The position numbers and the translations under genes were made by a program. From positions 39,814 through 103,813 of the forward strand of contig JALTLO010000177.1 of assembly GCA_027001995.1 (NCBI GenBank): a stretch of DNA of 64,000 nt. Reading direction: 5' to 3'. The notes beneath the pieces are model-generated. The model ran no database searches. It worked only from the letters and a program-made list of their open reading frames with translations, and was not told the DNA's origin. Shown here piece by piece: positions 25,908 through 50,734 of the stretch (the first letter of the stretch is position 1; each line of letters starts with the position of its first letter). Source of the DNA: Planctomycetota bacterium. Lineage in GTDB: Bacteria > Planctomycetota > GCA-002687715 > DRQF01.

Positions 25908-26369
25908 CTATGGAAGGATGGTGAACAAAGCTGTGTCGGTCAAAGAGATGCCCAAGCCAGGATGAGTTACCCCAGTCATTGGATCGGTCAAAGGAACAGG
26001 ATCAGTCACGACCCACTGAGTGAAGAATGTCAGTCCAGCATAGAATGGGTTGTTGGCGATACCAGTTGAGACGGAACCATAACCACTTCCCGGAACACCA
26101 AACGTACCCTTGAGGGTGATTTGTTGGATGAATGGTTGAAGTGGGCCAGATCCGACACCCAATGGGACAAAGCCAAAGAGTGTTTCGCCCAATGTGTTCG
26201 GGCTACCAGCAAGCAAGAATGCATCCATGGCTCCCCAGGCATTGTTCACGCCAATGGTGAAGAATGGGTGCTGCAAGTTGGCCGGTTGGTTGACGATGAT
26301 CTGCGGCACAGTCTTGTTGGAATCGGCGAAACCACTTCCTGGAATGATGAAAGGCAGACCGACACCACT
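25908..26369 (-). other. Shared C-terminal domain, copy in the peroxidase
   Basis: …NNPFYAGLTFFTQWVVTDP…ISLTDTALFTILP-stop resembles the C-termini of both FG-GAP proteins. Confidence 0.6.
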
Positions 26370-27626
26370 TTCACTGCGCAATGTAGGCCGACTGAAAACA
26401 CCGGTTTCATTGGCAACACGAGGATCGGTAAGAGCGTTCATCAAGAAGTCTTCCATGGCGATTCTGTCACCAATGGTCAGACTCAAGAATTGCATTTGAG
26501 GATCAATGTTCTCGAAGAAGACACCACCAAGAGCATAGAAACTGATGACCTGATTCAGATCGGCGCCGAGAGCGTTACCGTCATGGAACAAGCGGCCAGA
26601 GCCTTGGTTTCTGATGCCGACGTTGCGCAAGGTCGGTGTCTTCATGCGGCCTTTGTCGCTGGCCAAACCCGTGACTTGCATGCGTCCGGTGTCGTTGTTG
26701 GGATCGGTGATGCCGATGTTATGGAAATCGTCATCAGAGAAGAGATTTCCTGAGTGACATATGCCACAACGGCCTTTGGTCACGTCGTTGAAGACGCTCA
26801 ATCCCATGCTTTGTGTTGCCGTCATGGTTCCCAAGTCGAATGGGGTTTGGTCTGCAACCAATGTACGCTCGTAAGTGGCGATAGCAAATGCAATGCGCTT
26901 GACTGTGACTGTCGCGTCACCGAATGCCGCAGTGAAAAGATCGGCATAGGTTGGATTGACTGCCAAGGCAGCGACAATATCTGCGGGGAAATTGGTTGCC
27001 AAACGCAGGGGCTTGACCTTAGAAATTTTTTCTTCGATTTGAGCCCAATTGCGGTTTTCGTGGGCCATTTCGACATCTGAAACGGGAGGCCCAACAGCTT
27101 GGCTCTCGAGAGCACCGCCGGAAGCAATTTCGACAACGCCTGATACTGGGTTGACGAATTGGCTGCGAGCCCGGCCGTCCCAGAAGAGATCTGTGAAGAA
27201 TGCTGCGTCGATCATCGTTGGTGTCTTGCGCCCGGTCCGTTGGACATCGGGGAAGAAGGTACCGTCGTTGATCATGTCACCGTCCACAGTTGCGCGAATA
27301 ACACCACGGGAGCCGATGACATCGTCGAAGTCGCCGAGAATGCCGTTGGCACCTGGGTGATTTGAGTTTGGCAGGTTGGACCGAGGGTCACTACCGCCAG
27401 CGGCCGGAATGTGGCAAGTTCCGCAGGCTTGGGTGTTGGTGGAACTGAGTTGCTCGTCCCAGAAGAGGATTTTGCCCAAAACTGCTTTTGCTGCGGAAAA
27501 GGGATTTTCTGGGGGGAAGGAAACAACAGGGTAGTTGAGTGATGGAGACTGTGCGTTGAGACCGCTGGCAGCCACCAAGACTAATAGCCCAAAAAGGGAA
27601 AGGAACTTTGTCCGATGGGTCGTCAT
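25908..27626 (-). CDS. Di-heme cytochrome c peroxidase (CcP/MauG family) with an extra C-terminal domain
   Basis: Signal peptide, LGKILFWD, heme motifs CGTCH and CGICH, FWDGRA, KTPTLRN. GAGG RBS before ATG 27626. Confidence 0.92.
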   Translation of the reverse strand: MTTHRTKFLSLFGLLVLVAASGLNAQSPSLNYPVVSFPPENPFSAAKAVLGKILFWDEQLSSTNTQACGTCHIPAAGGSDPRSNLPNSNHPGANGILGDFDDVIGSRGVIRATVDGDMINDGTFFPDVQRTGRKTPTMIDAAFFTDLFWDGRARSQFVNPVSGVVEIASGGALESQAVGPPVSDVEMAHENRNWAQIEEKISKVKPLRLATNFPADIVAALAVNPTYADLFTAAFGDATVTVKRIAFAIATYERTLVADQTPFDLGTMTATQSMGLSVFNDVTKGRCGICHSGNLFSDDDFHNIGITDPNNDTGRMQVTGLASDKGRMKTPTLRNVGIRNQGSGRLFHDGNALGADLNQVISFYALGGVFFENIDPQMQFLSLTIGDRIAMEDFLMNALTDPRVANETGVFSRPTLRSESGVGLPFIIPGSGFADSNKTVPQIIVNQPANLQHPFFTIGVNNAWGAMDAFLLAGSPNTLGETLFGFVPLGVGSGPLQPFIQQITLKGTFGVPGSGYGSVSTGIANNPFYAGLTFFTQWVVTDPVPLTDPMTGVTHPGLGISLTDTALFTILP

Positions 27627-28006
27627 ATAAAACCTCACCTAGGGTACTGCACTGCCGGCTTATTCCAGCAATGACAAATTTCGGAACAACTTCTTGGAGT
27701 CCGATCGAATGAAATTATGGCAATGGGTGACGTGCCGGGTACTAAAAGGCTCATCACAATGTGCTTGAGTATAGGCATTTTGTTCGGGATTCACAGCATC
27801 CTTGAGAAATATTTGAGCTTGGGCCTGTTCCTCGCAAGTCTTTATTTGATAAAGCACTATGCATAAAAACCCTGATTTGATGTCCTTTGAATTCCCTTCT
27901 GTGACAACTTGTACAGGGAGCCAATTGTTCACTGTTTTGGTTGGATGCAAGTCCCGTAACTTCTGTGACGATAGAAGGATCAGAAGAACTCCGGAGCCGA
28001 AGAGCC

Positions 28007-29245
28007 TTGCTACTTTTATCGAACATTCTGACTCTGGTGGTCTTATTGGTGCTGGGTTTCGCCCTCCGCGCCGTGGGAAAGAAAGCCAGCATTCCTCCAG
28101 CAGCAAGCCTGATGTTTCTCGGAGTGCTCGTGGGGACGAGTGGTTTTGACGTCATTCCCCAGAGTTACCAGGCCATCAGTCAGCAATTGTCTCTTGTGGC
28201 CTTCGTCATGTTGCTTCTTCGGGCAGGCTTGGGCATGGAGCCCAAGGCCATGGGCAAAATGGTTCCTGGCATCGTCCTTCTTGGGTTGATCCCTGCCATG
28301 GCAGAGATGGCATTCTTGGCCACTGGCGCGCGGGTTTTTCTTTTCGATCGTTGGGACCTAGCGCTTCTCGCTGCCTTTCTTGTTGCGGCAGTTTCCCCAG
28401 CCGTCATTCTTCCGACCATGCTCGACCAAAAGCACAAGGGACGTGGTGGGCCCAGGATGGTACCGGATCGCATCATGGGAATGGCCATCGTCAACTCTTT
28501 CGTGGCGAAGGCGTCAATCATTCTCCTTCTTGGTCTCATTGTCGGCACGGTGAAACAGTCCGACTTGGGGCGAGAGTTGTTGCTATTGCCCCTCAGGTTG
28601 ATTTTTGGCGTTGTGCTTGGTTTCGTCTTGGGGCGTTTTGTGGTTGTGGCACTTGAGAAGGTGCCCAGATCTGAAACCCTCATATGGGGTGGCGCAGGCC
28701 TTGTCTTAGCCGCCTCCATCACCATGTACTTCAAGGCGCAGGCATTCTATTTTGAAGGTGTCTTTGCAGTCTTGTCGTTTGGTCTTGGAATGCGTCTTCG
28801 TGGTCCCGACTTGGCTGACGGTTTCAAAGATCGATTCAATAGCCTTTGGGCTGTGGCTGAAATCCCTTTGTTTGTCAACGTTGGTTCACTCATTGATCTG
28901 GGGCGGCTCTCTCAGTTGCCTTTGGTCGTCGGGCTTTTGGGCTTGATGATATTGGGGCTTGCTGTGCGGAAATGGGCGGCTTGGCTGTGCACAGCCCGGG
29001 GAGATCTCTCGAAGCCAGAGCGGTTTTATGTGACCCTTGCTCAAGTTCCCAAAGCCACGATTCAGGCTGTCTTCGGGCCGGTTGTTTTCTTCACTTTGGG
29101 AGGAGCTGGTTCTGAATTGCGCGAAGCTGGGCAGCTGATGCTCATTATGGCGGTCTTGGCGATAATTTCGACAGCCCCTATTGGAGCTGTGGTCTTAGAT
29201 CGTTGGGGTGGACGCCTTTTGCCGCGAAACGACGAATCGAGTTAA
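28007..29245 (+). CDS. Cation:proton antiporter (NHA/CPA family)
   Basis: About 12 TM helices, LLLRAGLG, AAVSPAVILP, PKATIQA, IISTAPIGA. Start approximate (TTG 28007 after GGAG; the track uses 27941). Confidence 0.87.
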   Translation: MLLLSNILTLVVLLVLGFALRAVGKKASIPPAASLMFLGVLVGTSGFDVIPQSYQAISQQLSLVAFVMLLLRAGLGMEPKAMGKMVPGIVLLGLIPAMAEMAFLATGARVFLFDRWDLALLAAFLVAAVSPAVILPTMLDQKHKGRGGPRMVPDRIMGMAIVNSFVAKASIILLLGLIVGTVKQSDLGRELLLLPLRLIFGVVLGFVLGRFVVVALEKVPRSETLIWGGAGLVLAASITMYFKAQAFYFEGVFAVLSFGLGMRLRGPDLADGFKDRFNSLWAVAEIPLFVNVGSLIDLGRLSQLPLVVGLLGLMILGLAVRKWAAWLCTARGDLSKPERFYVTLAQVPKATIQAVFGPVVFFTLGGAGSELREAGQLMLIMAVLAIISTAPIGAVVLDRWGGRLLPRNDESS

Positions 29246-29302
29246 AACTGCTTTCCCATTGGGCTTCACCGATTGACAGTTCAGATTTGCTAAGATCGAC
29301 TC

Positions 29303-29524
29303 ATGGTCAACAATAACAAAAGTAAACCCAGTGTCGGTTTGGCGCGCTTTCATAAGCTGACGATCGGAGCCGGGCTCCTGTGCATGATGTACATGATCTG
29401 GCGCTATTGGCACCTCTATCAATTCTCAGGCGAGAATCACCATTTGGCCTACGCTTCGGTGACCACCATGCTTTTCATGGCCATGACTGCATATCTTTGG
29501 CGTTTCAACAATAAAACTCTTTAA
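29303..29524 (+). CDS. Small two-TM membrane protein
   Basis: 73 aa ORF with two hydrophobic helices in an otherwise unoccupied gap. Confidence 0.55.
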   Translation: MVNNNKSKPSVGLARFHKLTIGAGLLCMMYMIWRYWHLYQFSGENHHLAYASVTTMLFMAMTAYLWRFNNKTL

Positions 29525-29772
29525 CAGGCACGATGCAGTCGAGGGGTGTGTCACCCAGGGCTGAAAACGGTGACTTCATGCCCTGGAGGATTCACGGTTT
29601 CGAGGACAGATCGAAAATGGCTTCGAGCTGGGAGTCGAAACGGGGTTCGGTTTTGAGTGGTAGGCCCATAGGAAGAATAGGTGCGGTAACTTCGTTTTCA
29701 CATGGTTGCAGCAGATAATGTAATCTGCCATTCTCAGTCAAGGCAATAGAATCACTCATACGAGGTAAACCT

Positions 29773-30230
29773 ATGAGAACTGTAGAGTCCGTCGCATGTT
29801 TGTTTTTGGTCATAGCCCTGCTGTTCGTGATGGGGCATGCTCAGGCGGCGATGGCTTAAACTTCTGACGGTGACAGTGTGGAAGACTATCTTGGCATTTC
29901 AGTCAGCCATGTTGGTGACGTGAATGGGGATGGCTTCACCGATCTCATTGTTGCTGTTCATTGGGATGACGGTAGCGGACCTGATAGCGGCAGTGCCCGG
30001 GGTCTTCTTGGCACCGACCTTGGCGGTCATTTAGTCCCCACGGAAACGACCTGCTCTCACGACCTTGATCTGAACTGTTTCCAGGATACCGCAGATCCAT
30101 TGGCAGTCACAGGGCTCTTGTCTGTGATGGAGTAACTCCTCGTGGGCTAAGCGTCATTGGTTGGTTGGAGCTTTGCTCAAGCTGATTTCTCGTTATTCGG
30201 CTATCTGCCCTTGCTCATTGCCATCGCCTC
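29773..30230 (+). pseudogene. Degenerate, internally collapsed duplicate of the downstream FG-GAP gene
   Basis: MRTVESVACLFLVIALLFVMGHAQAAMA-stop matches the signal peptide MNTLKFVVCLFLVMAV…YAQ. One FG-GAP repeat follows, then a frameshifted C-terminal domain (ACGGAAACGACC…GCAGATCCAT…TCTGTGATGGA…TTGCTCATTGCCATCG shared with 31717-31900). Confidence 0.88.
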
Positions 30231-30405
30231 ATGTCGCCTTGTGATCTGCCCTTGAGTGTGAGGACCTCATGAAAAGGACATGTGTGGTATGAAAAATTCT
30301 TCTTTCGTGCCAGAAAATGGGGGACTTGCTAAATTATGGATCTGTGACCGTATAGGAAGATTCGAGAAGAGCGCAAAGAGAAGATGATCATGAGGGGAGC
30401 AGTCT

Positions 30406-32079
30406 ATGAATACTCTAAAGTTTGTTGTGTGTTTGTTCTTGGTGATGGCCGTGATGGGGGGCGTGAGTTACGCTCAGGTGACGGTCGGCTACACTTTTAA
30501 CGGTGACAGTGTGAATGATTTCTCTGGCTATTCAGTCAGCAACGCTGGAGACGTGAATGGAGATGGTTTCGCCGATCTCATTGTTGGTGCCTCTGGAGAT
30601 GACAACAACGGAATCGACAGCGGTAGCGCCCGGGTTTTTTCTGGTTTCGATGGCAGTGTCCTCTACACCTTTGATGGTGATAGTGCGAACGATTACTTTG
30701 GTTATTCAGTCAGTAGCGCTGGAGACGTGAATGGGGATGGTTTTGCTGACTTCATTGTTGGTGCCTATGGAGACGCCAACAACGGAACTGAAAGCGGCGG
30801 TGCCCGAGTTTTTTCTGGTTTCGACGGCAGTACTCTCTATACCTTCGACGGTGACAGTGCGTTCGATAGATTCGGCTTTTCAGTTAGCGATGCTGGAGAC
30901 GTGAATGGGGATGGTTTTGCTGACCTTATCGTTGGTGCCTATGGAGACGATAATAACGGCGCTGTAAGCGGCAGCGCGCGGGTTTTCTCAGGCTTCGACG
31001 GCAGTATTCTCTACACATTTGACGGTGACGGTGTGGGCGATTTCTTTGGTCGATCAGTCAGCAATGCTGGAGACGTAAATAGGGACGGTTTCGCTGACCT
31101 TATTGTTGGTGCCGTTGGGGACGACAACAACGGAACCAATAGCGGTATTGCCCGGGTTTTTTCTGGTTTGGACGGCAGTATTCTCTACAACTTTGAGGGT
31201 GACAGTGTGGGTGACAACTTTGGTCAATCAGTCAGTCATGCCGGAGACGTGAATGGAGACGGCTTTGCTGATCTCATTGTTGGCGCCTATTTGGACGACA
31301 ACAACGGAAATGAAAGTGGCAGTGTCCGGGTTTTTTCTGGTTTGGACGGCAGTATCCTCTACAACTTTGACGGAGACAGCGCGGAGGATTACTTTGGAGT
31401 TTCAGTCAGCCATGCTGGAGACGTGAATGGCGATGGGTTTGCTGACCTCATTGTTGGTGCCCATGGAGACAACAACAACGGAAATGAAAGTGGCAGTGCC
31501 CGGGTTTTTTCTGGTTTGGACGGCAGTATCCTCCATACCTTTGACGGTAGCAGTGGATTCGATTTCTTTGGCTTTTCAGTCAGTAGTGCTGGAGACGTGA
31601 ATGGGGATGGCTTCGCTGACCTCATTGTTGGCGCTTATGGAGACGATAGCAACGGCCTTGATAGCGGCAGCGCCCGGGTTTTGTTGGCGCCGACCTTACC
31701 TGTCCTTAAGTACCGCACGGAAACGACCTTTTCTCATGGCCTTGATTTGAATTGGTTCCCGGATGCCGCAGATCCATCGGCAGTCACAGGTACTCTTGTC
31801 TGTGATGGAGGAACTCCCGGTGGTTTTGGGGTCAAATTGCGGAGTTTCGCTCGCATTGACTTCTTGGCATTCGGGAATCTGCCTTTGCTCATTGCCATCG
31901 ACTCTATCAATTTCCTTGACAGTCAGAATTTGAGTTTCGATGGCATGGGTGAGTTTACGATTTCCGGTGCTTCCCGCAAGAATCCTGTCTTGGCGGGTTT
32001 CGATGTCTACTTGCAGATCTTTGAAATAAGCCCAGTGATTTCCTCCTCTCCAGGATTACGCTTTGCGGTGGCACCTTAG
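30406..32079 (+). CDS. Exported FG-GAP/integrin-alpha seven-bladed beta-propeller protein with C-terminal domain
   Basis: Signal peptide and seven repeats with consensus SVSxAGDVNGDGFADLIVGA…SGSARVFSG. Confidence 0.95.
   Translation: MNTLKFVVCLFLVMAVMGGVSYAQVTVGYTFNGDSVNDFSGYSVSNAGDVNGDGFADLIVGASGDDNNGIDSGSARVFSGFDGSVLYTFDGDSANDYFGYSVSSAGDVNGDGFADFIVGAYGDANNGTESGGARVFSGFDGSTLYTFDGDSAFDRFGFSVSDAGDVNGDGFADLIVGAYGDDNNGAVSGSARVFSGFDGSILYTFDGDGVGDFFGRSVSNAGDVNRDGFADLIVGAVGDDNNGTNSGIARVFSGLDGSILYNFEGDSVGDNFGQSVSHAGDVNGDGFADLIVGAYLDDNNGNESGSVRVFSGLDGSILYNFDGDSAEDYFGVSVSHAGDVNGDGFADLIVGAHGDNNNGNESGSARVFSGLDGSILHTFDGSSGFDFFGFSVSSAGDVNGDGFADLIVGAYGDDSNGLDSGSARVLLAPTLPVLKYRTETTFSHGLDLNWFPDAADPSAVTGTLVCDGGTPGGFGVKLRSFARIDFLAFGNLPLLIAIDSINFLDSQNLSFDGMGEFTISGASRKNPVLAGFDVYLQIFEISPVISSSPGLRFAVAP
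30528..31690 (+). repeat. Seven tandem 174 nt (58 aa) FG-GAP coding repeats
   Basis: GGAGACGTGAATGG…GATGG…GCTGA…CATTGTTGGTGCC recurs every 174 nt. Confidence 0.95.
31690..32079 (+). other. Shared C-terminal domain, copy in FG-GAP protein 1
   Basis: …NLPLLIA…DGMGEF…KNPVLAGFDVYLQIFEISPVISSSPGLRFAVAP-stop. Confidence 0.65.
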
Positions 32080-32188
32080 ACTTGGCGCCTCAAGCTATTC
32101 ATGACTCGTGGTCGTCATGAAAGATCACCAATAGAAGGGGATCGATCATGCAATCCGTTAGGTTTGCCTACTTCGACCGCGACTTCAT

Positions 32189-32214
32189 GAAAGACAGATC
32201 TCGGGCTGTCTTTC
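32189..32214. terminator. Hairpin between the convergent FG-GAP and gdh genes (possible terminator)
   Basis: 9 bp stem GAAAGACAG/CTGTCTTTC. Confidence 0.5.
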
Positions 32215-32230
32215 TGGAACCAGGATGTCT

Positions 32231-32268
32231 CAAACAACAACGATCATGCCGTGAGTCGGCATGATCGT
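32231..32268 (-). terminator. Probable intrinsic terminator of gdh
   Basis: Perfect 12 bp stem ACGATCATGCCG/CGGCATGATCGT followed by TGTTGTTTG on the minus strand. Confidence 0.7.
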
Positions 32269-32294
32269 CTTCAATTCTCTTGCTTAGATCTGGG

Positions 32295-36242: not shown

Positions 36243-36245
36243 GCC

Positions 36246-38041: not shown

Positions 38042-40555
38042 CTAAGGCTCCTTAGAAACCTGAACAGCAGGTGTGAAGTGTTTGGTTCCCACTCCCTGGA
38101 TGAACAGTTCTGATGGTATTTTCTGCTGTTTATTGAACTGATAAGTCGTCACTCCCGAGCCCAACTGATTTGTCACCAAGAAGAAAGTGCAGTCTTCTCC
38201 ATCGACATTTTTCAGTCCAGCCTCATCGTTGAGCCACATGCTACCCGTTCGTTCTGGAAACTTCCGTGCTTGGGCATCAAGAGCACCGGATAAATAGAAT
38301 TCATAGCGGGATTCTCGTTCGCCCCCAATCAGGTTCACTTCGAGTTTGCCGTCGGCTCTTATGTGTGCGCGAACAGTTGGCACTGGGAATGACCCCGTGG
38401 CAAACTCTTGAGTCGCTGGCCGCAGGTCTAAGCTCTCTAATGTCAAATTCAAGCCCGGTTCAGTCTCACTCCAAAAAGAAACGGATTCCAAACGTCCCCG
38501 GCTCAAAGGGATGACCCACTCATTGCTGCCAATTCGTTTGGGGAACAGCCGGCGTTTTTGCCCTCCCAGTTCATCGGTTCGCGTGCCCGACCATGAGACC
38601 TCGAAAGAGGAATTCATGTCTTCTTCCCTCATGAGTCCGCGAATAACTAAGTCTCTCGGCGGGGTGGTAAGTATCTTGCGAAAGCGAAAAGTGGCTTGGG
38701 AGTCCTTGTCGACCAACTCCATTGCGATCTTGCCGTCGACAATGGACATTTCTGAACCTTGCGGGAAGACATAGTAAGAGTCAAAAGTCTGTGGCGCAGA
38801 TTCAAGCAAGGGGGTGGCACAGGATCTTGCCAACGTCGTTACGAGAATGGACAAGACGATGATGGATGCGGCAATGAGAAGGAGTAGGGCACGAACCTGC
38901 GGCTGAGTAAGTCTCTTCTTTCCGCCTTGAAACCGCACATGAGCATGGAGGGAAATCGTCGACCAGACCACCAAGAGAGGGTAGGCAAGAAGAAGATCTC
39001 GGCCTCGGTTTGGCAACCAGAACACTTCTTCAAAGCTGATGGTCAATGCTCCCAAGAGAGCGCAAATGAAGAAGAAGGACTCCACTAAGAATAGGGAGTC
39101 GAACCCTCTTTCTCGGCGCCAAGCTATCTGCGTAATGAATGCAATGAGTGCGGCAAAGAAAAGAGCCGGAATGACTACTTGGTACCAGGAGCGAACGCGG
39201 TTTCTGCGGTCGGCGTCTTGGTAGGGATGGACTGCCATGTGGAAGGGATCTTCCAGGAGAACATTCTTATACATGTTGACCTCCCCTGGGTTGGCAGCAA
39301 CTTGCGCCACTGCCTGAGCCGGTTCCACATCTTCGTAGTCGAATCTCCAAAGCTCATGGGTCTTGTACCACAGGCCATGAAGTGCTTTGCCCATGCCCGT
39401 CATGGTCCAGCTTGGAGAATCGTTGCTGAGTGTTGTGTCCAAGGACTTGATACGTTTTTCGTCACATGCTTGGTTGATCTCGCGAGCCAAATCATTGTAG
39501 AAGGCGATGGCAGTCTTGGGGTCCTTGTGTTTTCCCGCCTGGGCAGCCGCTTCGCGAATGGCCTTGGCCAAGAGTGCTGCTGGTCTGCCGATCTTGTCGC
39601 CTTCGCTCTCGGGGCCTGAATAAAGTGGGCTTTCCAGGACCGGTTTCAACTCTGCGAATTTTTGGGAAACTTGATAGAGCGATTTTCTCTGATTGGCACT
39701 CAGGGCACCTAACTCATGATTTTCAACACGGGCTACTCTTTGAATGGCTCCTAAGGCCGCTTGAAAGTGAGGTTCGTCCATTTCCTCGATGAGAGAGACT
39801 CCGTAGTGCTTTTCATTCTTGGCTTTGACCCATCCTTGGGCCCCCTGAACCCCAAGAACAGTAGAAAGGATCACCAACAATCCTTCGACGATCAATTTCT
39901 TTCGATCTTCATTGAGATGACGTCTGATGCGCCAGCGCAAGAAGAACCCAAGCCCCAGGTAGGGCACTAAGCGAAGCCAGTGAGGTGATGTGATCGAAGT
40001 CCATGCGAGAACAAGGGTCAACGCGCCAACATGGATACGGAACCACTTTGTCTCTTTGACCCCGACGAGCATGAGGCAAAGTCCAATGGCAAGGACACTC
40101 TGGAGGCTAAACAGATTGGGAATGGCGAGACGGGTCGCCAGTTGGCCGTAAAATGCTGGGCAAAAGACAACACCAATGAATGCCAGTGTTGCCAGTGGAG
40201 GAGGGATTCCTAAGCGGATAAGGGCAACCAAAATCAAGGTGCTGCCGATTGCCAAAAGAAGAAAATTAAAGATTCTGAGAGAAATGCCCCCTTGGTCGAG
40301 TGCAGCTAAAGTCAGGGAGAAACCAGGTGGCTGTCTGAGTTGACGAAAATCGTAGCCCCCTAACCACCGGCCATCTTGAATGTGAGATGCTTGAGACACG
40401 AAAACATAATCTCTTGACCAATCAGGCATCCACTGGCTCGGCAGGTGGGCGGTTAGCTCCCAGCGAATCGAAAGCACGATAGCTAAGACGAGGCCGAGAA
40501 CGATCCAGCTCCGTCGGTCCATGGTGCATTGAGATTTGTCGTTGTCGTCAGTCAT
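38042..40555 (-). CDS. Large multi-pass membrane protein (GT-C glycosyltransferase-like) with a soluble C-terminal region
   Basis: 837 aa. TM1 is followed by an extracytoplasmic loop (DYVFVSQASHIQDGRWLGGY…PPGFS), then about 12 TMs and a beta-rich C-terminal part. Confidence 0.6.
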   Translation of the reverse strand: MTDDNDKSQCTMDRRSWIVLGLVLAIVLSIRWELTAHLPSQWMPDWSRDYVFVSQASHIQDGRWLGGYDFRQLRQPPGFSLTLAALDQGGISLRIFNFLLLAIGSTLILVALIRLGIPPPLATLAFIGVVFCPAFYGQLATRLAIPNLFSLQSVLAIGLCLMLVGVKETKWFRIHVGALTLVLAWTSITSPHWLRLVPYLGLGFFLRWRIRRHLNEDRKKLIVEGLLVILSTVLGVQGAQGWVKAKNEKHYGVSLIEEMDEPHFQAALGAIQRVARVENHELGALSANQRKSLYQVSQKFAELKPVLESPLYSGPESEGDKIGRPAALLAKAIREAAAQAGKHKDPKTAIAFYNDLAREINQACDEKRIKSLDTTLSNDSPSWTMTGMGKALHGLWYKTHELWRFDYEDVEPAQAVAQVAANPGEVNMYKNVLLEDPFHMAVHPYQDADRRNRVRSWYQVVIPALFFAALIAFITQIAWRRERGFDSLFLVESFFFICALLGALTISFEEVFWLPNRGRDLLLAYPLLVVWSTISLHAHVRFQGGKKRLTQPQVRALLLLIAASIIVLSILVTTLARSCATPLLESAPQTFDSYYVFPQGSEMSIVDGKIAMELVDKDSQATFRFRKILTTPPRDLVIRGLMREEDMNSSFEVSWSGTRTDELGGQKRRLFPKRIGSNEWVIPLSRGRLESVSFWSETEPGLNLTLESLDLRPATQEFATGSFPVPTVRAHIRADGKLEVNLIGGERESRYEFYLSGALDAQARKFPERTGSMWLNDEAGLKNVDGEDCTFFLVTNQLGSGVTTYQFNKQQKIPSELFIQGVGTKHFTPAVQVSKEP

Positions 40556-40662
40556 GGTGTGCTGAGTCTAACTGGCGGCCATGTTTGTTCCTATGTCTTA
40601 TGGCGAAAACTCAGTTCCCGATTGAATCTGGGCCAAAACCCCACTTTCGGCTAACATGAGGC

Positions 40663-41256: not shown

Positions 41257-41258
41257 TC

Positions 41259-43751
41259 GTGCAGCTCCCTGTTGACCTCATCGTTCCAGATATTCTCAAA
41301 TCGTTGGCATCACGACCTTGTGTTGTTGTCACCGCACCTCCAGGCTCAGGGAAAACAACGCGCATTCCTCCAGCGTTGGTAGGGGCTTTTGGTGTTGGCC
41401 GTGTTTTGGTTTCTCAGCCTCGTCGAATTGCGGCTCGGTCCGCTGCTGCACGTATGGCGGAAGAGCAAGGAAGCTCCCTAGGAAAGAGCATCGGATTTCA
41501 AACACGTTTTGAGTCGAAAGTTTGTCCTGAAAGCCAGCTTATCGTATTGACTGAGGGACTTCTGCTGCGAAAAATCCAGTCGGATCCTTTCCTTGGCGGA
41601 GTCAGTTGTGTGGTTCTGGATGAGTTCCACGAACGCAGCTTGGACTTAGATCTGACCTTGGCCTTTCTCAAGGAAGTCATTTCCGAAGCCAGGCCAGACT
41701 TGAAGTTGATCATCATGTCCGCGACCTTGGAGGTGGAGCCTCTCCTTAATTATTTAGAAGATGCGGTGACTTTGTCTGCTGAAGCCCGTCTTTTCCCTAT
41801 TGAAGTGACCCATGACCGGCATCGAGACGAGGGTCGCTTAGAACAGAGAGTCAGTGGGGCCATTACAGATGCTCTTAATTTGCATGAGGGGAATCTCTTG
41901 GCATTCCTTCCAGGAATTGCAGCCATTCGGAAGACCAAGGAACGATTGAAAGCTCTCCAAGTCGATCAGATTGCTGACATTCTCGAACTTCATGGTGATC
42001 TGGATGCCAAACTCCAGGATGCGGCAATTTCGAAATCCGGCCGCCGCAAGGTCATCTTGTCCACCAACGTTGCTGAGACATCCCTGACCGTTCCCGGAGT
42101 CCGCATTGTGGTTGACTCAGGGCTCGTAAAGAAGCTGCGTCATGACAGCAATCTAGGATTGGATCGGCTCGAGGAAGAGAGAATCAGTTTGGCTTCAGCC
42201 CGTCAGCGGAGTGGGCGGGCTGGTCGGGAAGGCCCAGGATTCGTGAAGCGTTTGTGGACTCAAGTTGATGAGCGGCAAATGCCAGAGCAGGACGAGGCAG
42301 AAGTCTACAGGTTGGAATTGGCGAATGCGATTTTGCAAATTCTCTCCTGGGGGGCACCTTCCGTCGACGACTTCGACTGGTTTGCTTGCCCGCCGAAGAA
42401 GAGTCTCCAGGAGGGTGTTGGTCTCTTAGACCGTTTGGGTGCCATTGAGACCGATCTCGAAACTGGAAAACTATCATTGACCAAGTTGGGACAGGGGCTC
42501 TGCTCTTTGCCCATTCATCCTCGTCTGGGTGTGCTCTTGCATGAGGCCGATGCTCGAGGGGTCGGAGACCTTGGGGCATTGGCTTGTGCACTACTAAGTG
42601 AACGCGATCTCTTGAGTATGGATCAGCGTCGCGGTTTGGGACAGAAGCTTGCGGCGCCTTCTGATCTGCAATTGCGAATCGACCTTGTTGAAAGTGATGA
42701 TCGACAGATCCACCGAGGCGGGCGTGCGCGGGTGCGAAAGGTAGCCAAGCAACTGAGGCGCTTCCTTGGAACTCACTCCGGCCCAAAGCCTACTCATGCC
42801 GCTGAAGCGTTGTCTAAGGCCGTTCTTGCTGCCTTTCCCGATCGTCTAGCGAAAAGGCGAGATAAGGATAGAACTCGCGGGCTTATGGTGGGGGGCAGAG
42901 GTGTTCAGATATTAGAAGAAAGCGTGGTCAAAGATGGAGATCTCTTTTGTGCCTTACGCTTGTCCGCTGGCAGAAGGGGTAAGGGTTCTGATTCCCCAGT
43001 GACTTGGCTCCAATGGATTGATGAATCTTGGTTGGAGGAAGATTTTTCTCATGGGCTTCGGACCAAGGATGAAGGGGCCTTTGATGAAGCTAAGGGGAGG
43101 GTCATTTTTGTCCGACGCAAACGATTCTTTGATCTCATCCTCGACGAGCGCCAGGTCAATGTGACAGATGGGGCGGCAGCAGGTGAGATTTTGGCCCAAG
43201 CAGTTCGCCAGCACGACCAGACCATTCTTGCGAGAATCGTTGACCGTAAGACAGATTCTTTGCTGCAGAGGCTGGCGTTCCTGAGGGAACATAGTCCGGA
43301 GTTTCCCTGGCCGAAATTCGAGGGAGCAGACTTGATAGAACTCATTGTGAGCTTGTGTCCCGGGAGGTCGCGGTTTTCTGAACTTGAACCCCAAGACCTG
43401 CGTCGCATGATTGAAGCCTCCATTGGCTTTCAACTCATGACCCGACTCAAACAGGAAGCACCGGTGGAATTTCAGCTTGAGAATGGTCGGAAGCTCAAAG
43501 TCGCTTACACCCCCGGTGCCCCTCCTACAATCTCTTCTAAGGTGCAGCATTTTTTCGGTCAGTGGGAAACCCCTTCGTTTGTGGGGGGGCGGGTCAAGGC
43601 GCGTGTCGAGTTGTTGGCCCCTAATAGGCGACCGGTTCAGATCACCTCTGATCTGGCGAACTTTTGGCGAACCACTTATGCTCAAGTCCGAAAGGACCTG
43701 CGGGGGCGCTACCCAAAACATGACTGGCCAGAAAATCCACCGGGGTCATGA
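41259..43751 (+). CDS. hrpB: ATP-dependent DEAH helicase HrpB
   Basis: APPGSGKTT, DEFHER, MSAT, STNVAETSLT, QRSGRAGR, and the HrpB C-terminus ELLAPNRRPVQITSDL…RGRYPKHDWPENP. Confidence 0.96.
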   Translation: MQLPVDLIVPDILKSLASRPCVVVTAPPGSGKTTRIPPALVGAFGVGRVLVSQPRRIAARSAAARMAEEQGSSLGKSIGFQTRFESKVCPESQLIVLTEGLLLRKIQSDPFLGGVSCVVLDEFHERSLDLDLTLAFLKEVISEARPDLKLIIMSATLEVEPLLNYLEDAVTLSAEARLFPIEVTHDRHRDEGRLEQRVSGAITDALNLHEGNLLAFLPGIAAIRKTKERLKALQVDQIADILELHGDLDAKLQDAAISKSGRRKVILSTNVAETSLTVPGVRIVVDSGLVKKLRHDSNLGLDRLEEERISLASARQRSGRAGREGPGFVKRLWTQVDERQMPEQDEAEVYRLELANAILQILSWGAPSVDDFDWFACPPKKSLQEGVGLLDRLGAIETDLETGKLSLTKLGQGLCSLPIHPRLGVLLHEADARGVGDLGALACALLSERDLLSMDQRRGLGQKLAAPSDLQLRIDLVESDDRQIHRGGRARVRKVAKQLRRFLGTHSGPKPTHAAEALSKAVLAAFPDRLAKRRDKDRTRGLMVGGRGVQILEESVVKDGDLFCALRLSAGRRGKGSDSPVTWLQWIDESWLEEDFSHGLRTKDEGAFDEAKGRVIFVRRKRFFDLILDERQVNVTDGAAAGEILAQAVRQHDQTILARIVDRKTDSLLQRLAFLREHSPEFPWPKFEGADLIELIVSLCPGRSRFSELEPQDLRRMIEASIGFQLMTRLKQEAPVEFQLENGRKLKVAYTPGAPPTISSKVQHFFGQWETPSFVGGRVKARVELLAPNRRPVQITSDLANFWRTTYAQVRKDLRGRYPKHDWPENPPGS

Positions 43752-43902
43752 GGTCGGTTGTGAGCATCCCCATGACCGTTGCCTCAAGGAAGGCACAAGG
43801 GCCGCAATCTCGTGAATAGGGCGGTCTGTCAGCGAATATGTCCCACGGCCTGACGTTGCCCTTCGGCTGTGCTATCCTCTGGCGAATCGTACGAGGAGTC
43901 AA

Positions 43903-44271
43903 TTGGTGAAGTTGGTGTTGATCTTGATTGGACTGAACGCCTTGGGAGCTTGTGTTGGACCATTGCCGGCGCCTACCCCCCCAGGACAACTTTCGGAAAC
44001 GGCTGGCGGTGTCATTTACGTGGACATCCCTCGACCTTTGCATGAGGTCAGGGAATTCTTTGAATCCCGCGAAAGTGAGACTGCTGCAAGTGGTACCGAA
44101 GGCGTTTTTCTTTTGTTCGCTGATGACCATGTGATTCAAATCGAAGTGACTTTGATTTCAGATAAATTGACCCAACTCCGCATTGAAGATCAAAGGGATG
44201 ACAATGAATTGGTGGGGCCTAACGGCCTTCGTCGTTGGAGTCGCGCCTTGGTCAAGGATCTTTTGCCATGA
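43903..44271 (+). CDS. Putative lipoprotein
   Basis: GAGGAG RBS, lipobox LGA|C, ATGA overlap with the next gene. Confidence 0.65.
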   Translation: MVKLVLILIGLNALGACVGPLPAPTPPGQLSETAGGVIYVDIPRPLHEVREFFESRESETAASGTEGVFLLFADDHVIQIEVTLISDKLTQLRIEDQRDDNELVGPNGLRRWSRALVKDLLP

Positions 44272-46703
44272 ATGATGCCAAGGTAATCCATGAGAAAGGT
44301 CTAATGATTCCCCTCATGGGTCTATCTATAGCGGCTCTGGCAGCTCAGATCTTGATGGTGCGAATTTTCTCATTCACGATGAATCATGGTTTCGTCTACA
44401 TGGCGGTTAGCCTCGCTATGCTGGGGTTCGGAATCTCTGGGACGTTATTGTCTTTAGTGCCGCAATTGAAACAGTCGTCGCCTCGGTCATGTTTGCAGTT
44501 TTGTTGCCTTGGATTCTCCCTATCACTTGTGGCGTCCATGTATGTTTTTGGTCGATTTGCGTCCTTGGCGAGCCCCGCATCGGGTTTGAGCTTGATGTCG
44601 CCTTTGGCGGCTCGTCTCCTCTTACTTTCCTTGCCCTATGTGTTTGCCGGCCTTGGGATTGCTGTGGCTCTCTTGGCGCGCAAGGAAGGTGTGGGGCTTC
44701 GTTATTCTGTGAATCTGGCCGGATCTGGCCTGGGTTGTTTGCTCGCCTATCCTCTGCTGACGACATGGGGGGCTGAAGCAGGACTCTTGGTCTTGGGGGC
44801 TTTAGTTTGTTTCTCTGGCGTTTTTTTGGGCCGGCTCTTTTGGCGACTCATTCTGCTGGCCGGGGCTATTTCCTTCTTGGCATTCATTCCTCATGCTGTT
44901 GATCTCTTTGCTTTCTCCCCTGACAATGCTGATCAGTTGGCAGATTTGATTCGTCAACTTGAGAAGGACGGTCATGATCCCGACGATGTGAAGCTTGAAT
45001 TTGAAGCCTGGGATCCTGTTGGACGTATCGAAGTCCATTCCTTGCCAGGGGACTATGGTCGCATGTTGCATAAGGCGCCCGTCCGCTTTTACTCTCAGGA
45101 CGCCGGGGCTGGGAGCGTTCTTCTGTCTTTGGGGGACTATCCCGATCTCAAAGAAAGTCTGACAAAGGGAACCCTCTATGGATTCGCTTCTCGCCTAAGA
45201 CCTCATGCTGAATCCCTGGTCATTGGCATTGGCGGTGGTCCAGACCTGATTGCCATGTTGGCGGCAGATACGAAGAAAGTAACGGCGGTTGAAATCAATG
45301 GGGCTACGGTCTCCATGATTGGCAAGGATCAAGCTGCGTTCTTAGGGCTCGAAAATGATCTTAAGTCAGGTCGTTTGGCGTTGTTTCACGCAGATGGTCG
45401 CGGATTTGTTCGACGCCATGGGGAGGCCTTTGATGTCATCCAAATGACAGGGGCCGACACCTACGCTGCTAATCCTGCGGGTGCTTCTATACTTTCGGAG
45501 GGTTACCTCTATACAATAGAGGCCTTTCGCGATTACTTCCATGCACTCAAACCAGGGGGCATCACGGCTGTGACCCGCTTCGGCATCGAAAGTGCGCGGG
45601 TATTCAATACGGCGTTTCAGGCTCTCAATGATGTGGGCGTGGCGAACCCCAGAGATCACCTTGCGGTGGTGGCTCAAGGCAATGGAGAGATATGGAGTAC
45701 GGTTCTGATGAGTAAAGAGCCGTTTTCTGATGCCGACATCGCCAAGCTTTATGCTCTTTGCAAGGAGGGCGCTCCCTTTGCCGAGAAGTGTTGGATTCCG
45801 GCCTACAACGCTGTTGGATTCCGCTTTGATGCACCCCTTCATGTGACTTTCGAACCCCGTCTCCCCGTTGATCTTGAATCCATGGGAGAGAAACTTGAGG
45901 GTGATAAGTGGCGTTTGGATCCAGTCAATGACGATCGCCCTTTTTTCTTTCAATTCTTGCAGCGGGACGGCATTGGCTGGCAAGAGGTCTTTGACAACCA
46001 GGGTTTCAACAAGCATCATTGGGATTTGCCAGATTACTTGCGCATTGCTCTGCAAGTCTGCGGCGTGGCGCTTTTGTTGATCCTTCTGCCTTTGTTGCGC
46101 CTGGGGCGAGGGGGGGCGTCAAAGGGAGACATGGTCTGCGTTGGCCTTGGATTTGTGGCTCTGGGGGCCGGCTTCATGTTCTTGGAAGTTGTTCTCATGC
46201 AGAGGTGTACCTTGTTTCTTGGCCACCCCAATCATGCCATCGTTGTTGTTCTTTTTTCTCTTTTGCTTTCAAGCGGTTTGGGTAGCGCTTTGAGCAGCCA
46301 GCTACCGTTTTCTAAGAAACTTATTGTCTGGGTGTCGATTGTCGGTGTCTTGGTTTGGACTTGGTATTTCAAGAACAATGCTCAAGATTGGTTCGAGGAG
46401 CGCTTAGAGCTCTCTCTTTGGGCTCGTTCCTTCCAGTTGATGGGTTGGATCCTGCCTCTGGGCCTTCTGATTGGCATGCCCTTTCCAACTTTTCTGAGCG
46501 CTGTCGAAGAACAAAGGCCTCAATTGTCGGGGTGGGCATGGGGAGCCAACAGTTTCGCTTCTGTATGTGCATCCCTTATTGCCATTCCGGTTTCTATGCA
46601 GTTGGGTTTCAGTTTCTCGTTTAACTTAGCCCTGCTTTGCTATGCCTTGGCTCTCCTGGCCATTTTGGCTTTCATGAGGCCAAGGGCCCCTCAATCTCGT
46701 TGA
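44268..46703 (+). CDS. Membrane protein with a spermidine-synthase-like SAM-binding domain flanked by TM domains
   Basis: YSVNLAGSGLG, LVIGIGGGPD, VEIN, DGRGFV, EGYLYTIEAF, NDDRPFFF, AWGANSFASV. ATG 44268 lies in the ATGA overlap. Confidence 0.85.
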   Translation: MNDAKVIHEKGLMIPLMGLSIAALAAQILMVRIFSFTMNHGFVYMAVSLAMLGFGISGTLLSLVPQLKQSSPRSCLQFCCLGFSLSLVASMYVFGRFASLASPASGLSLMSPLAARLLLLSLPYVFAGLGIAVALLARKEGVGLRYSVNLAGSGLGCLLAYPLLTTWGAEAGLLVLGALVCFSGVFLGRLFWRLILLAGAISFLAFIPHAVDLFAFSPDNADQLADLIRQLEKDGHDPDDVKLEFEAWDPVGRIEVHSLPGDYGRMLHKAPVRFYSQDAGAGSVLLSLGDYPDLKESLTKGTLYGFASRLRPHAESLVIGIGGGPDLIAMLAADTKKVTAVEINGATVSMIGKDQAAFLGLENDLKSGRLALFHADGRGFVRRHGEAFDVIQMTGADTYAANPAGASILSEGYLYTIEAFRDYFHALKPGGITAVTRFGIESARVFNTAFQALNDVGVANPRDHLAVVAQGNGEIWSTVLMSKEPFSDADIAKLYALCKEGAPFAEKCWIPAYNAVGFRFDAPLHVTFEPRLPVDLESMGEKLEGDKWRLDPVNDDRPFFFQFLQRDGIGWQEVFDNQGFNKHHWDLPDYLRIALQVCGVALLLILLPLLRLGRGGASKGDMVCVGLGFVALGAGFMFLEVVLMQRCTLFLGHPNHAIVVVLFSLLLSSGLGSALSSQLPFSKKLIVWVSIVGVLVWTWYFKNNAQDWFEERLELSLWARSFQLMGWILPLGLLIGMPFPTFLSAVEEQRPQLSGWAWGANSFASVCASLIAIPVSMQLGFSFSFNLALLCYALALLAILAFMRPRAPQSR

Positions 46704-46839
46704 TTCTCTCAAACCTCGTTTCTTCTGCAATCTCGAAGGCTTCTGCACCTCTTCAATTGGCTCGACGTCCCCGTTGACTTATGATGGCACCACTCATGCG
46801 ACTTCCACTTTGGGTAAGTCATCGTATTTGGAGCTCCTT

Positions 46840-49800
46840 GTGACAATCCGCAACATTCTCTTTCTTATCATAGTTCTTGGGATCCAGGGATCGCTCTGGG
46901 CCCAGGTCGACGGTGCCACACTTAAGTCTCAGGACGTCTGGTCGGTGCCGAAGAATGTCCAAGAAGTCGGAGACATGCTCAAGGAGGTTGATAAAGAGAT
47001 CGCTTCTTTAGCCCAAGATGAAAAAAAGAAGGAACGACTGGAAACTCTGACGAAGCAGAAGGGAGTTTTGGAAGCTCTTGCCAAAGTGATGACTGAGACG
47101 GCTGGCTTAGAAGCAGCGAGCAACAATCTCAAGGACCGCGCTAAGAAGAAGAGCGAAGAGTTGGCGGAGGAGAAGGGGCGAAAGAAACGAGATGGCCTGA
47201 TGACGGCAAATCTCACCATCAAAGACCTCAACGAAGCCAAGAAGAAAGTTGACGATCTCAATGCCGACATTGGTCGGGCCCATAGTTTGGTGGAAGCAGC
47301 GGAAAAAAAAGTCGACCAGTTGACGAAACGGCTGGAAAGCAGCTTGCGTGATATTCAGAAAATTCCCTTGGAAACCGCTTCTCAAGCACGGAGTGCCTTT
47401 GAAGAAGCGAAAGCTGAAGATCCTGTTGCTAAGAACTTACTCCTGTCGAAACTCCATTTGGCTCAACTTCAGCTTGAGTTGGTCACGAGGAACCGCGATA
47501 GAGATGAGAAACTCAAAGACTTAGGGTCTCTGGCTGATGAGGTGCGTATTGCCAAACTCGATGAGTCGATCCTCAAGAGGAAGCTCGAGATTGCGGCTGC
47601 AGAGCAGGAAGATATCAGAAACCGAGTTTCCGAGTTGGCAGAAGAAGCCCGAGAGCGGGGTCGATTTGATATTGAGGCCCTTGAGAAAGAAGTTGCTGCC
47701 CTTCAGGAGTCTGAAGACTACAAACGACCCTGGTTAGAATTGCGTCTTGAACGAGCTAAACTGAGAGACGCAACAAATCGTTTTCAAAAGGAATGCGGCG
47801 ATTTCTCTGAAGCCATAGATGGCCGGGGGGCTTTTGTGGCCATGGAGCCCGTGGTCACCACCTTGGCTGATCGTATTCAAGCGTTTATTGAGAATCCAGC
47901 TGAGGATGTTCTACCTCGAACCGCCGATGGTCTTCGGGCAAGCCGAGATGAAGCAAAGCAGCGTTCTCGGGCTATGTTGACCAACCTTCACGATATTCGA
48001 GAAAGGCTTCCCCTGGTTTCTGACATTCTCGGTAACGCCACCCGGGAACAAAAATCTCTGGATGAGCGCATTGCGGATGCACGGGCCACCTACGAAGCTG
48101 GCCGCAAGAAATCGCCGATTCAATATCTTGAGGTCGTTCCTGATTGGGTTTCTCTGGAAAATGACTTGGTGGCGGCTCACAACGAGTATCGCACGCTGAT
48201 TGACGGCTTTCTGAGCAAATTGAAACAGGACCTGAGGAAATGGGAAGACCTGCAAGATCGTAGTGACGCGAACGTCCAGTTCTTGACCCGGGAATTGCTA
48301 TGGACACGGGAAGAAAGCAACGTTTCCATTGAAAGCATGGAACGAGCTCTCAGAGATTTGTCTCAAGCCGCCGGCAATTTGGGAGGGCTCATCTCAGAAG
48401 CCTCCCATGGCGCGGTTTCATTTCTGTTCGAAGAGAAAAATCGCCTGCGAACAGGGATCGCCTTCCTGTTCATTCTCGTCGTCGGATTTGCCTTTGTCCG
48501 CCTTCATCTTCGTTTGCCGAAGACTTGGGGTTGGTTGGATGCTCAAGCCCACGAAGGAAAGAACTATTACCTCATCTTGGGGATCATTCTCCGCCGCACT
48601 CATGTCAGTCTGATGTTGGCCGTTGTTTTCGTTGGAGCCCCTCTCATTGTCGGATTCGATCGGGGCTTGGTCGAATTGGCAGCTTGTGTGTTTGCGGTTC
48701 CTTTCCTCTATCGCCTTGGCCGCGTGACGCTTGATGTTTTTGTTCTTCCAGGAAAGGACGAGGAGAGAGTTTTTAATCTCGATGAGGATTTAGCGCGAAC
48801 GCTGCACCGGGCAGGGCGATGGTTGCTCAACTTGGCTGTTGTTTTTGTGCCTGCGGCAGTCTTGCTGGAGTTTGTCGGCTACGGAAAAACGAATCCTGGG
48901 TTTTTGGAGCTATGGTGGCTGACCTACGAATCTCTCAGTCATGCGATTCTCCTATTCTCGGTTTTTCGTCCCGCTGTGGTCAGCAATATCATTCGCGGGG
49001 GTGGTGTGGTTGCCATTTCGGTAAAGACCTGGATTCTTATTCTTTATCCTCTTGTTGTTGGTGCCGTCCTCTTCCTCTTTGTCTTGGGCAGTTTGAGGTA
49101 TTTGGAGGCTGAGCAGTTCTTCCAAACTCTTTTGCTCAAGAGCCTGGGGGTCCTCTTCTTCAGTTATTTGGGATATCGTTTACTTCTGGCGAAGGTGACA
49201 AAAGGCCAGGATCTATCCAGAGAACCAAACCCAGAGGATTTTGAAAATGACAAGGATTTCGTCACAGTCGGACGAGAACTGTTTTTTGGACGTTTGACGC
49301 GGACCTTTATACGCCTCGCATTCGCTGTACCTGCGATCTTTTTGATCGTGCGGTTCTGGGACGAATTCGACATGCCGTTTCTGGAATGGGGGATTTTTGG
49401 GGAAGGAACGGTGACGACGAAGGACTTCTTGAAGGCGTTCATCGCCTTCATCATCACCACAGCCATTGTGCGTACTATTCGACAGTCCCTTGCCTATGTG
49501 ATCTTGCCCAAAACAGATTTGGACAAAGGTCTGCGCTATACCGTGAGTATGCTGGCAACCTACGCTCTTTGGACCCTGGGCATGGTTGTGATCTTGAACA
49601 TCATCAAAATCCGTGGTGAGCATATCGCCGTCTTTACCGGAGCTTTGGCGTTCGGAATCGGATTTGGTCTCCAATCCATCGTCAAGAACTTTGTTTCTGG
49701 TTTGATCCTATTGATCGAGAGACCAGTCAAAGTTGGAGACAAAATTGACGTAGGCAACAAAGGTGGGTCGGTGGAGAAAATCACGTTGCGTGCCACCACA

Positions 49801-50265
49801 GTCATGACGTGGGATGGTACGGGCATCGTCATTCCCAATGAGACGATGGTGGGTGGCACATTGACCAATCACAGCTTGGGGCATCCCCGATTACGTTCGT
49901 CTCTCTTGGTAGGGGTGGGCTATGGCAGTGACGTCAAACGAGTTCGCGAAATCCTGACGGAAACCGTAAAAGGGCACGGGCTTACTCTCAAGCGTCCAGC
50001 ACCGGAAGCGTTCTTCATGGGTTTTGGCGACTCAAGCCTTGATTTCCAAGTGCGTTACTGGACAAGGATGTCGACGCATCGTTTGCGGGTAATCAGCGAC
50101 TTGCGCTTCGCAATCGAAGAGGCTTTTCGACGCGAGAACATTGAGATTCCCTTTCCCCAACGGGACCTCAACATTCGCTCAGTTGATGGGGATGTCATGG
50201 GTGCGTTTGGGGGTAACCAAGGCGTTGAATTGGACCCGGAGTTGGAAGATCATGAGGAACAATGA
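46840..50265 (+). CDS. mscK: MscK/KefA-like mechanosensitive channel (long periplasmic coiled coil, TM region, MscS domain)
   Basis: [59 protein letters not shown]. Start approximate (46774 or 46840). Confidence 0.88.
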   Translation: [1141 protein letters not shown]

Positions 50266-50297
50266 TCCCTGGGGCGTGAGGGAATCAGGTCTGGAAG

Positions 50298-50343
50298 GAA
50301 AGAGAAATCCGTTGCCCAGAACCTAAGGGAACTGGACAACGGA
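50298..50343 (-). terminator. Probable terminator of FG-GAP gene 2 (between convergent genes)
   Basis: Stem TCCGTTGCCCAG/CTGGACAACGGA with one wobble pair, followed by TTTCTCTTT on the minus strand. Confidence 0.6.
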
Positions 50344-50350
50344 ATGAGAG

Positions 50351-50734
50351 CTACTGGGGACCAAACAGGAGTTCTATTGCATTGGTCGTATAGGCTGTCG
50401 CACCCAAGACACCGTATTGGACGTAGATCCGAATACCCGCTAAGGCGGATTGAGCGAGATTGACGAAGTCTCTGTGTTCACCCAGGTTGTCTGTGGTTGA
50501 ATTGAATAGGCCATACAAATCGCCCGGGGCTGGAGAGACAAAGAGTGGGAGGTTCGTGCCGGGCACGAGGGTATGGACTGCTGCGAAGCCCACAATCCCG
50601 ATGATGGGTGTAAGAGGATCGGCGCCACTGAGGGTCATGGCTCCATTGGCTGGGGCCACGGTGCCGGGAGTCCAATCGAATGACGGAGCGCCCGGTGATT
50701 GGCCATAGCGCTGGCCTCCCATCAAAGTTCTTCC
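50351..50734 (-). other. Shared C-terminal domain, copy in FG-GAP protein 2
   Basis: …NLPLFVS…DNLGEH…QSALAGIRIYVQYGVLGATAYTTNAIELLFGPQ-stop. Confidence 0.65.

Follow-up and report, generated by a model that had tools for sequence, protein, structure and literature searches.

Three proteins encoded in a 64,000-nt stretch of DNA from a Planctomycetota bacterium (NCBI GenBank assembly GCA_027001995.1, contig JALTLO010000177.1, positions 39,814 to 103,813 of the forward strand; hereafter the window) end in similar C-terminal tails. They are an exported di-haem peroxidase of the MauG/CCP superfamily (25908..27638, minus strand), a protein with a signal peptide and a seven-repeat FG-GAP propeller (FG-GAP 1; 30406..32079, plus strand) and a divergent FG-GAP propeller protein (FG-GAP 2; 50351..52024, minus strand). 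A preliminary description of the window had proposed that these tails might be the targeting or anchoring module of an uncharacterised planctomycete export or surface-display system. As judged from sequence profiles, the three tails form one domain superfamily with two subfamilies, type A on both FG-GAP proteins and type B on the peroxidase. We tentatively regard the domain as a docking module of exported proteins.

The tails as one domain superfamily

The list of open reading frames (ORFs) and their translations confirmed the three proteins together with the motifs that had been quoted for them. The type B tail of the peroxidase occupies 25911..26351 (minus strand; about amino acids (aa) 430–576), with the genome-wide hidden Markov model (HMM) match covering aa 430–547 and the terminal strand following it. 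The N-terminal part of this protein matches Pfam CCP_MauG (E 2.6e-35) and scores well under the cut-offs of the NCBIfam MauG and MbnH models; its likely start is the ATG at 27626. In FG-GAP 1, seven Pfam FG-GAP repeats (E 6.5e-49) are followed by a type A tail at 31666..32076 (plus strand; about aa 421–557), in which the HMM match runs to the last residue. FG-GAP 2 scores against Pfam FG-GAP_3 (1e-8) and FG-GAP (8.6e-8) and carries a divergent type A tail at 50354..50752 (minus strand), ending one residue ahead of the stop codon. Its longest ORF begins 26 codons upstream of the ATG at 51946, which is probably the true start and immediately precedes the hydrophobic, signal-like segment MSKIVISFFLTLVCTMTGSAQ. 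All three N-termini resemble signal peptides and each ends in AQ. The translations also bear out the earlier statement that the C-termini have neither a transmembrane (TM) helix nor a basic tail, as they end in beta-strand sequence. No Pfam or NCBIfam family covered any of the three tails (the last 120–145 residues) at E values up to 1.

In pairwise BLASTP comparisons the tails resemble each other weakly: FG-GAP 1 and FG-GAP 2 gave an E value of 7e-4 with 26% identity over 90 aa, the peroxidase and FG-GAP 1 gave 0.005, and the peroxidase and FG-GAP 2 showed no significant similarity (E 5.6). A word-based homologue search with the FG-GAP 1 tail returned just five proteins. Iterated HMMs were run within the genome on 21,405 six-frame ORFs, each 80 aa or longer. 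Seeded with the FG-GAP 1 or the FG-GAP 2 tail, they reached an identical set of 27 ORFs (type A), with the FG-GAP 2 tail scoring E 8e-30 and one residue remaining after the match; the peroxidase tail reached 11 ORFs, none of them among those 27. The two profiles nevertheless aligned with each other in hhalign with a probability of 95% (E 3.5e-8, 88 columns; 86% in a separate script run), and a looser HMM iteration fused both sets into one of 39 ORFs, with 26 type A and 13 type B members. When 20 tails from both subfamilies were aligned together, the AG-x4-Q motif kept its G and Q without exception. A tree of 71 domains placed the 25 type A tips, the FG-GAP 2 tail among them, in one exclusive split (support 0.987). 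The domain measures about 120–145 aa. Because this profile-profile and iterative HMM similarity is real despite the weak pairwise scores, one superfamily with two subfamilies is the appropriate description; chance similarity of the tails is rejected by the same alignments and searches, and the proposal that all three proteins share a common terminal domain is thereby upheld.

The AlphaFold 2 (AF2) model of the type A tail (FG-GAP 1) is all-beta with ten strands (pLDDT 92.6, pTM 0.83). That of the type B tail (peroxidase) is also all-beta, with a confidence too low (pLDDT 65.5) to serve as a query, and the structure searches were made with the type A model. Foldseek found no match in the PDB at E ≤ 1e-3 (best E 5e-3). 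VIA-align against 48,161 chains gave a best Z score of 6.6; 170 chains reached Z ≥ 5 and no chain reached Z ≥ 8. The best rows were all tied and consisted of FN3 and immunoglobulin (Ig)-like chains (Z 5.6–6.6, 77–99 aligned residues). The predicted fold thus appears to be a generic Ig/FN3-like beta-sandwich, and the best rows of the structural comparison that had been suggested include Ig-like chains. No type IX secretion system (T9SS) C-terminal domain (CTD), no carbohydrate-binding module (CBM) and no integrin chain occurred among the 50 best structural rows, and such chains may stand further down. Neither Pfam, NCBIfam nor the PDB held an entry matching the tail domain. The sole match of the PDB sequence-profile search, a partial one to a GH11 xylanase (E 0.015), was taken as chance. 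In the ESM Atlas both tails lie nearest to the same unnamed clusters (at 0.89 and 0.97), which comprise proteins of 131–147 aa whose known members are mostly from Planctomycetota.

The peroxidase and FG-GAP 1 genes are divergent and a Na+/H+ exchanger gene stands in between. Just upstream of FG-GAP 1, at 29773..30135 (plus strand), lies a decayed propeller-plus-tail paralogue (phmmer E 9.5e-9), recognised also from its translation and the ORF list. It consists of a signal peptide resembling that of FG-GAP 1, an in-frame stop, a single FG-GAP blade and the opening strands of a type A tail, followed by a further stop. Selenocysteine was considered for this remnant and rejected because the in-frame stop at 29857–29859 reads TAA, not TGA. 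The remnant shows turnover within the propeller-plus-tail family. No secretion apparatus was found beside the three genes, the neighbourhood in the window consisting of housekeeping genes; two window ORFs at 38045–40555 (minus strand, 837 aa) and 44235–46700 (plus strand, 822 aa) matched no Pfam family at E ≤ 1e-5.

Carriers, placement and distribution

In this genome, 37 of the 39 copies of the domain are C-terminal. The type A match ends 0–5 residues from the stop in every copy. The remaining two copies (2/39), both of type B, sit directly behind the signal peptide with 215–384 residues following. Of the 39 ORFs, 30 passed a script test for a signal peptide and six more were recognised by eye, the rest being two fragments and one ORF without its N-terminus. 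A type A fragment at C134:43377-43634 is cut by the contig end, and a 125-aa type A ORF at C76:40903-41280 keeps the final 34 domain residues and is likely a remnant.

Type A carriers are mostly propeller proteins, as detailed below, and one type A copy (213 aa) carries no other domain; the subfamily is a family-level paralogous expansion of one propeller-plus-tail gene. Type B has unrelated partners. Its 13 ORFs comprise five MauG-like peroxidases, one matrixin (M10), one FG-GAP_3 protein, five proteins without a Pfam family at the thresholds used and one unscanned fragment. The five di-haem peroxidases are paralogues, all with a type B tail and all below the NCBIfam MauG and MbnH cut-offs. 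The earlier reading of a tag on diverse exported cargo is weakened in that two of the three window proteins belong to type A, which represents one architecture.

Carrier genes cluster in the genome: seven pairs lie no more than 8 kb apart where 2.0 would be expected (P 0.0016). Five of these combine type A with type B, compared with an expectation of 0.92 (P 0.0026), and one of the five is formed by the peroxidase and FG-GAP 1 genes. A functional link between carriers or local hot spots of duplication may account for the clustering. No recurrent neighbour gene or operon partner of the 39 carriers was found; the largest neighbour families were ABC ATPases (8 ORFs near 6 of the 39 genes) and Ser/Thr kinases (5 near 5).

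The type A profile gave 8–47 matches in each of eight other genomes of the same family, 1–8 weak ones per genome in 13 of 14 from the same order and none in 18 genomes of other Planctomycetota families. The type B profile gave 7–26 matches in the family genomes and 9–77 in all 14 genomes of the order, and it matched in 3 of the 18 genomes from other families. Across an even sample of the phylum, type B was present in 57 of 251 genomes and 49 of 200 genera. Its presence is all-or-none by family, with 7/7 and 6/6 genomes in two families (f8, f25) versus 0/13 and 0/14 in two others (f7, f15). By this sequence evidence the domain family is confined to part of the Planctomycetota.

A search of 1.84 billion representatives with the mixed profile yielded 2,382 matches at E ≤ 0.001 and 165 at E ≤ 1e-10. 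Type A sequences make up 11 of the 20 profile rows, which skews the resulting list towards that type. Of the best 150 representatives, 145 have the domain at the C-terminus and 2 at the N-terminus; the other 3 have it internally, in the order propeller, domain, TIG. There are 123 representatives of 250 aa or more, and a partner scan of 122 of them found, besides the propellers considered below, 4 CCP_MauG proteins, one DUF5060+Big_7 protein and 10 proteins without a family. An N-terminal hydrophobic stretch is present in 102 of 113 full-length database representatives, and stand-alone exported copies exist (P0036, P0046, P0103). In five relatives, the best 30 type B matches (11 of them in ORFs cut at the locus border) include 25 that end 0–3 residues from the stop and 5 that stand behind a signal peptide; the partners are CCP_MauG (8), FG-GAP (7), a PQQ propeller, a Kelch propeller and an HZS_alpha-like domain (one each), and 12 have none. 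The profile search that had been suggested thus returned many copies, on exported proteins and mostly at the C-terminus, as expected, together with N-terminal, internal and stand-alone copies that do not fit an exclusively terminal domain. None of the three outcomes named beforehand as contrary to the earlier proposal was found, i.e. tails without profile similarity, a domain mostly internal or on cytoplasmic proteins, or a match to a known Pfam domain.

The position of the tail was compared on homologous peroxidases, using one of the paralogues as query and 79 loci from species-representative genomes. The nearest homologue (77% identity) belongs to a Planctomycetota metagenome-assembled genome (MAG). 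The tail is present in 46 of the 79 loci, all labelled Planctomycetota, one of its groups or 'bacterium', and in none of 13 loci labelled as other phyla. Eight of the 46 tail-bearing homologues have 61–65 residues after the tail, and in seven of these eight the additional piece is a GC-type dockerin (31–49 bits versus a cut-off of 29). The seven proteins that combine a peroxidase, a beta-sandwich and a GC-type dockerin (L086, L092, L093, L094, L098, L126, L127) come from Phycisphaerae-type genomes. In the tail-dockerin lineages the C-terminal end belongs to a recognised anchoring module, and the domain is an accessory one inside the protein.

Twenty-three tail-less homologues with a C-terminal extension were examined. 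Four carry a T9SS type A CTD (TIGR04183; 32–40 bits versus a cut-off of 23), and all four of their genomes encode SprA; these loci (L085, L103, L114, L141) belong to Gemmatimonadetes, Eisenbacteria and two unclassified MAGs. This suggests that MauG-like peroxidases of this family are surface or secreted enzymes in several phyla. Single homologues end in a GC-type dockerin (L121, 61 bits), an fn3 domain (acidobacterial), an endonuclease/phosphatase-type domain, or a VPEP-helix-RRRR end with a weak PEP-CTERM score below the curated cut-off. Three have dockerin-like repeats and an IPTL-CTERM-like end just under the cut-offs, and two more look alike by eye. Ten extensions have no family, six of them short, Asp-rich and dockerin-like by eye. 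Because homologues place T9SS CTDs, dockerins and PEP-/IPTL-CTERM-like ends there, the C-terminal position behind the peroxidase is a slot for localisation modules in several lineages.

Possible roles of the tail domain

We infer, as a possible rather than a probable reading, that the tail is a non-catalytic, non-covalent docking or binding module and not a cleaved secretion signal. Enzymes and propellers exported by the Sec route would be retained by the domain at a ligand or partner that they share, in the envelope or outside the cell. Such a role would require binding by the domain, a ligand common to the carriers and localisation of the cargo through that binding. As an autonomous module, the domain would have been added to numerous exported proteins within one section of the phylum. 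Tentative support comes from the existence of one family with an autonomous fold, from the export of its carriers and from its unrelated partner domains. The single copy per protein, at either end, is by analogy the placement expected of CBMs and accessory sandwiches. The slot analogy, the clustering of the carrier genes and a genome without the named alternatives point in the same direction. With regard to the earlier proposal, the slot comparison backs a role in localisation, and the idea of a dedicated C-terminal tag with its own machine is weakened.

Several observations weigh against a docking module. Binding by the tail is purely inferred, and the generic fold is silent on function. Of the 25 full-length type A copies in this genome, 24 accompany an FG-GAP propeller, in one case preceded by a subtilase, and no obvious linker separates the tail from the last blade, a layout that also fits a purely structural role; likewise, 107 of the 122 scanned representatives pair the domain with an FG-GAP-type propeller. 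In two 2.9 Mb Phycisphaerales genomes the domain could be a peroxidase-specific accessory domain, because their sole copies (2 and 1) sit in peroxidase-tail-dockerin proteins. Finally, the slot analogy and the extreme C-terminal placement of more than 90% of the copies would fit a sorting signal equally well.

The nearly constant position of type A right after a propeller suggests, as an alternative, a passive structural domain, i.e. a stalk, spacer or folding partner without a common ligand or localisation role, comparable to the thigh of integrins. The TIG domain that follows in three representatives is stalk-like, the domain lies between enzyme and anchor in the peroxidase-tail-dockerin proteins, and an Ig/FN3-like fold would suit such a role. 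We nevertheless consider it rather unlikely that the domain is merely structural. It occurs once per protein and not in the tandem arrays typical of spacers, it is found with unrelated partners, at either end and in stand-alone exported copies, the G and Q of its AG-x4-Q motif are invariant across both subfamilies, and its carrier genes cluster. In addition, neither a Pfam match to Integrin_alpha2 nor an integrin chain among the 50 best structural rows was obtained. If the domain were only a structural Ig-like module, it would be an ordinary lineage-specific domain family.

The preference for the extreme C-terminus, the apparent Sec-dependent export of all carriers and the tens of copies per genome in the order (9–77 matches) could also indicate a true sorting or secretion signal, read and perhaps removed by an undiscovered planctomycete outer-membrane export or attachment machine in the manner of the T9SS CTD. 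T9SS CTDs occupy the slot behind the peroxidase in genomes with SprA, and the all-or-none presence by family is as for a system with machinery. However, a dedicated C-terminal sorting signal read by a translocon is hard to square with the observed placements, because copies occur N-terminally, directly behind the signal peptide (2/39 and 5/30), internally, followed by TIG (3/150) or a GC-type dockerin (7 loci), and alone without cargo. Some genomes have one or two copies, all in one enzyme family. No recurrent neighbour accompanies the carriers (the largest neighbour families stand near at most 6 of the 39 genes), the search for SprA gave no candidate in this genome, and the type A, type B and mixed alignments contain no conserved cleavage-type motif or linker. 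We therefore regard a sorting signal as unlikely, and it is similarly doubtful that planctomycetes have an undescribed system for surface display or outer-membrane export to which the domain serves as address tag. Were this the case, the tag would be an independently evolved functional counterpart of the T9SS CTD in Planctomycetota, and an envelope receptor or translocon limited to the domain-bearing clades would read an Ig-like module on dozens of exported proteins.

Pairing of the propellers' type A tails with the type B tails of enzymes into extracytoplasmic propeller-enzyme complexes, suggested by the excess of mixed gene pairs alone and compatible with the frequent dimerisation of Ig-like domains, is very improbable, as type A is scarce or missing in many type B-bearing genomes of the order (1–8 weak versus 9–77 matches) and the pairs are not operons, those in the window being divergent with the exchanger gene between them.

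With a docking module as the tentatively preferred reading, the domain bears on a barely described subject, the placement of planctomycete proteins in or beyond the outer membrane. An unnamed folded domain is found on tens of exported proteins per genome within a delimited section of the phylum, in the position that T9SS, dockerin or PEP-CTERM-type modules take in other phyla, which gives a concrete handle. Its clean presence or absence by family makes a search for the partner directly testable, and a Pfam-type model would annotate thousands of 'hypothetical' C-termini. Among the papers listed by full-text literature searches, no description of this tail domain was found. Passages of PMC11685898 concern other C-terminal subdomains, and a term search of a review of Planctomycetota from 2025 (PMC12673574) gave no occurrence of six terms relating to secretion or sorting (e.g. 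'secretion system', 'surface protein' and 'secretome').

Comparison with known sorting and docking systems

The preliminary description had stated that the tails follow none of the T9SS CTD, PEP-CTERM and LPXTG patterns; both the profile scans and the C-terminal ends agree. The layout of motif, hydrophobic helix and basic tail that characterises PEP-CTERM and LPXTG signals is absent from the three C-termini, and the PEP-CTERM model TIGR02595 found no match in this genome, nor did it find one in any control genome. The T9SS models TIGR04183 and PF18962 did not match the three proteins at E values up to 1. Genome-wide there was no T9SS CTD match either; 14 control genomes were equally without one, and the model does score on the four tail-less peroxidase homologues. 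SprA (PF14349) gave no candidate in this 92%-complete genome, whereas the control search detected it in all four genomes with T9SS-CTD peroxidases.

The tail nevertheless shares with the T9SS CTD the form of a small beta-sandwich, the extreme C-terminal position on Sec-exported proteins, the many kinds of cargo and, at four loci all with SprA, the same slot on homologous MauG-like peroxidases. It differs in its size, about 120–145 aa and ten strands versus the 72 positions of the T9SS family model, and in its presence in a genome without a T9SS CTD match or SprA. Moreover, T9SS CTDs always occupy the extreme C-terminus, whereas the tail domain is also N-terminal (2/39, 5/30 and 2/150), internal or alone.

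In integrin alpha chains an Ig-like thigh sandwich directly follows a seven-repeat FG-GAP propeller, as the tail does in type A proteins. The tail family differs in occurring on peroxidases and proteases as well, and Integrin_alpha2 (PF08441) gave no Pfam match at E values up to 1.

Dockerins resemble the tail as terminal, non-catalytic modules on exported enzymes, their accepted role being non-covalent docking. GC-type dockerins close homologous peroxidases, after the tail in seven loci and without it in L121. Sequence and expected fold are unrelated, with short Asp-rich repeats in dockerins and a beta-sandwich in the tail. Because both coexist in one protein, the tail and the GC-type dockerin are not equivalents. 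In this genome neither the GC-type dockerin (NF041540) nor dockerin type I (PF00404) gave a match; the control for the latter was positive in two genomes.

FN3, Ig-like and CBM-type accessory modules differ from the tail in that it has no Pfam sequence match and is confined to part of one phylum. Like the tail, they are single all-beta modules beside a catalytic or propeller domain, at either end. CBMs can precede dockerins in extracellular enzymes, and a dockerin can follow the tail as well. The structural neighbours of the tail are FN3 and Ig-like domains, and the acidobacterial homologue of the peroxidase carries an fn3 domain in the very slot that the tail occupies in Planctomycetota.

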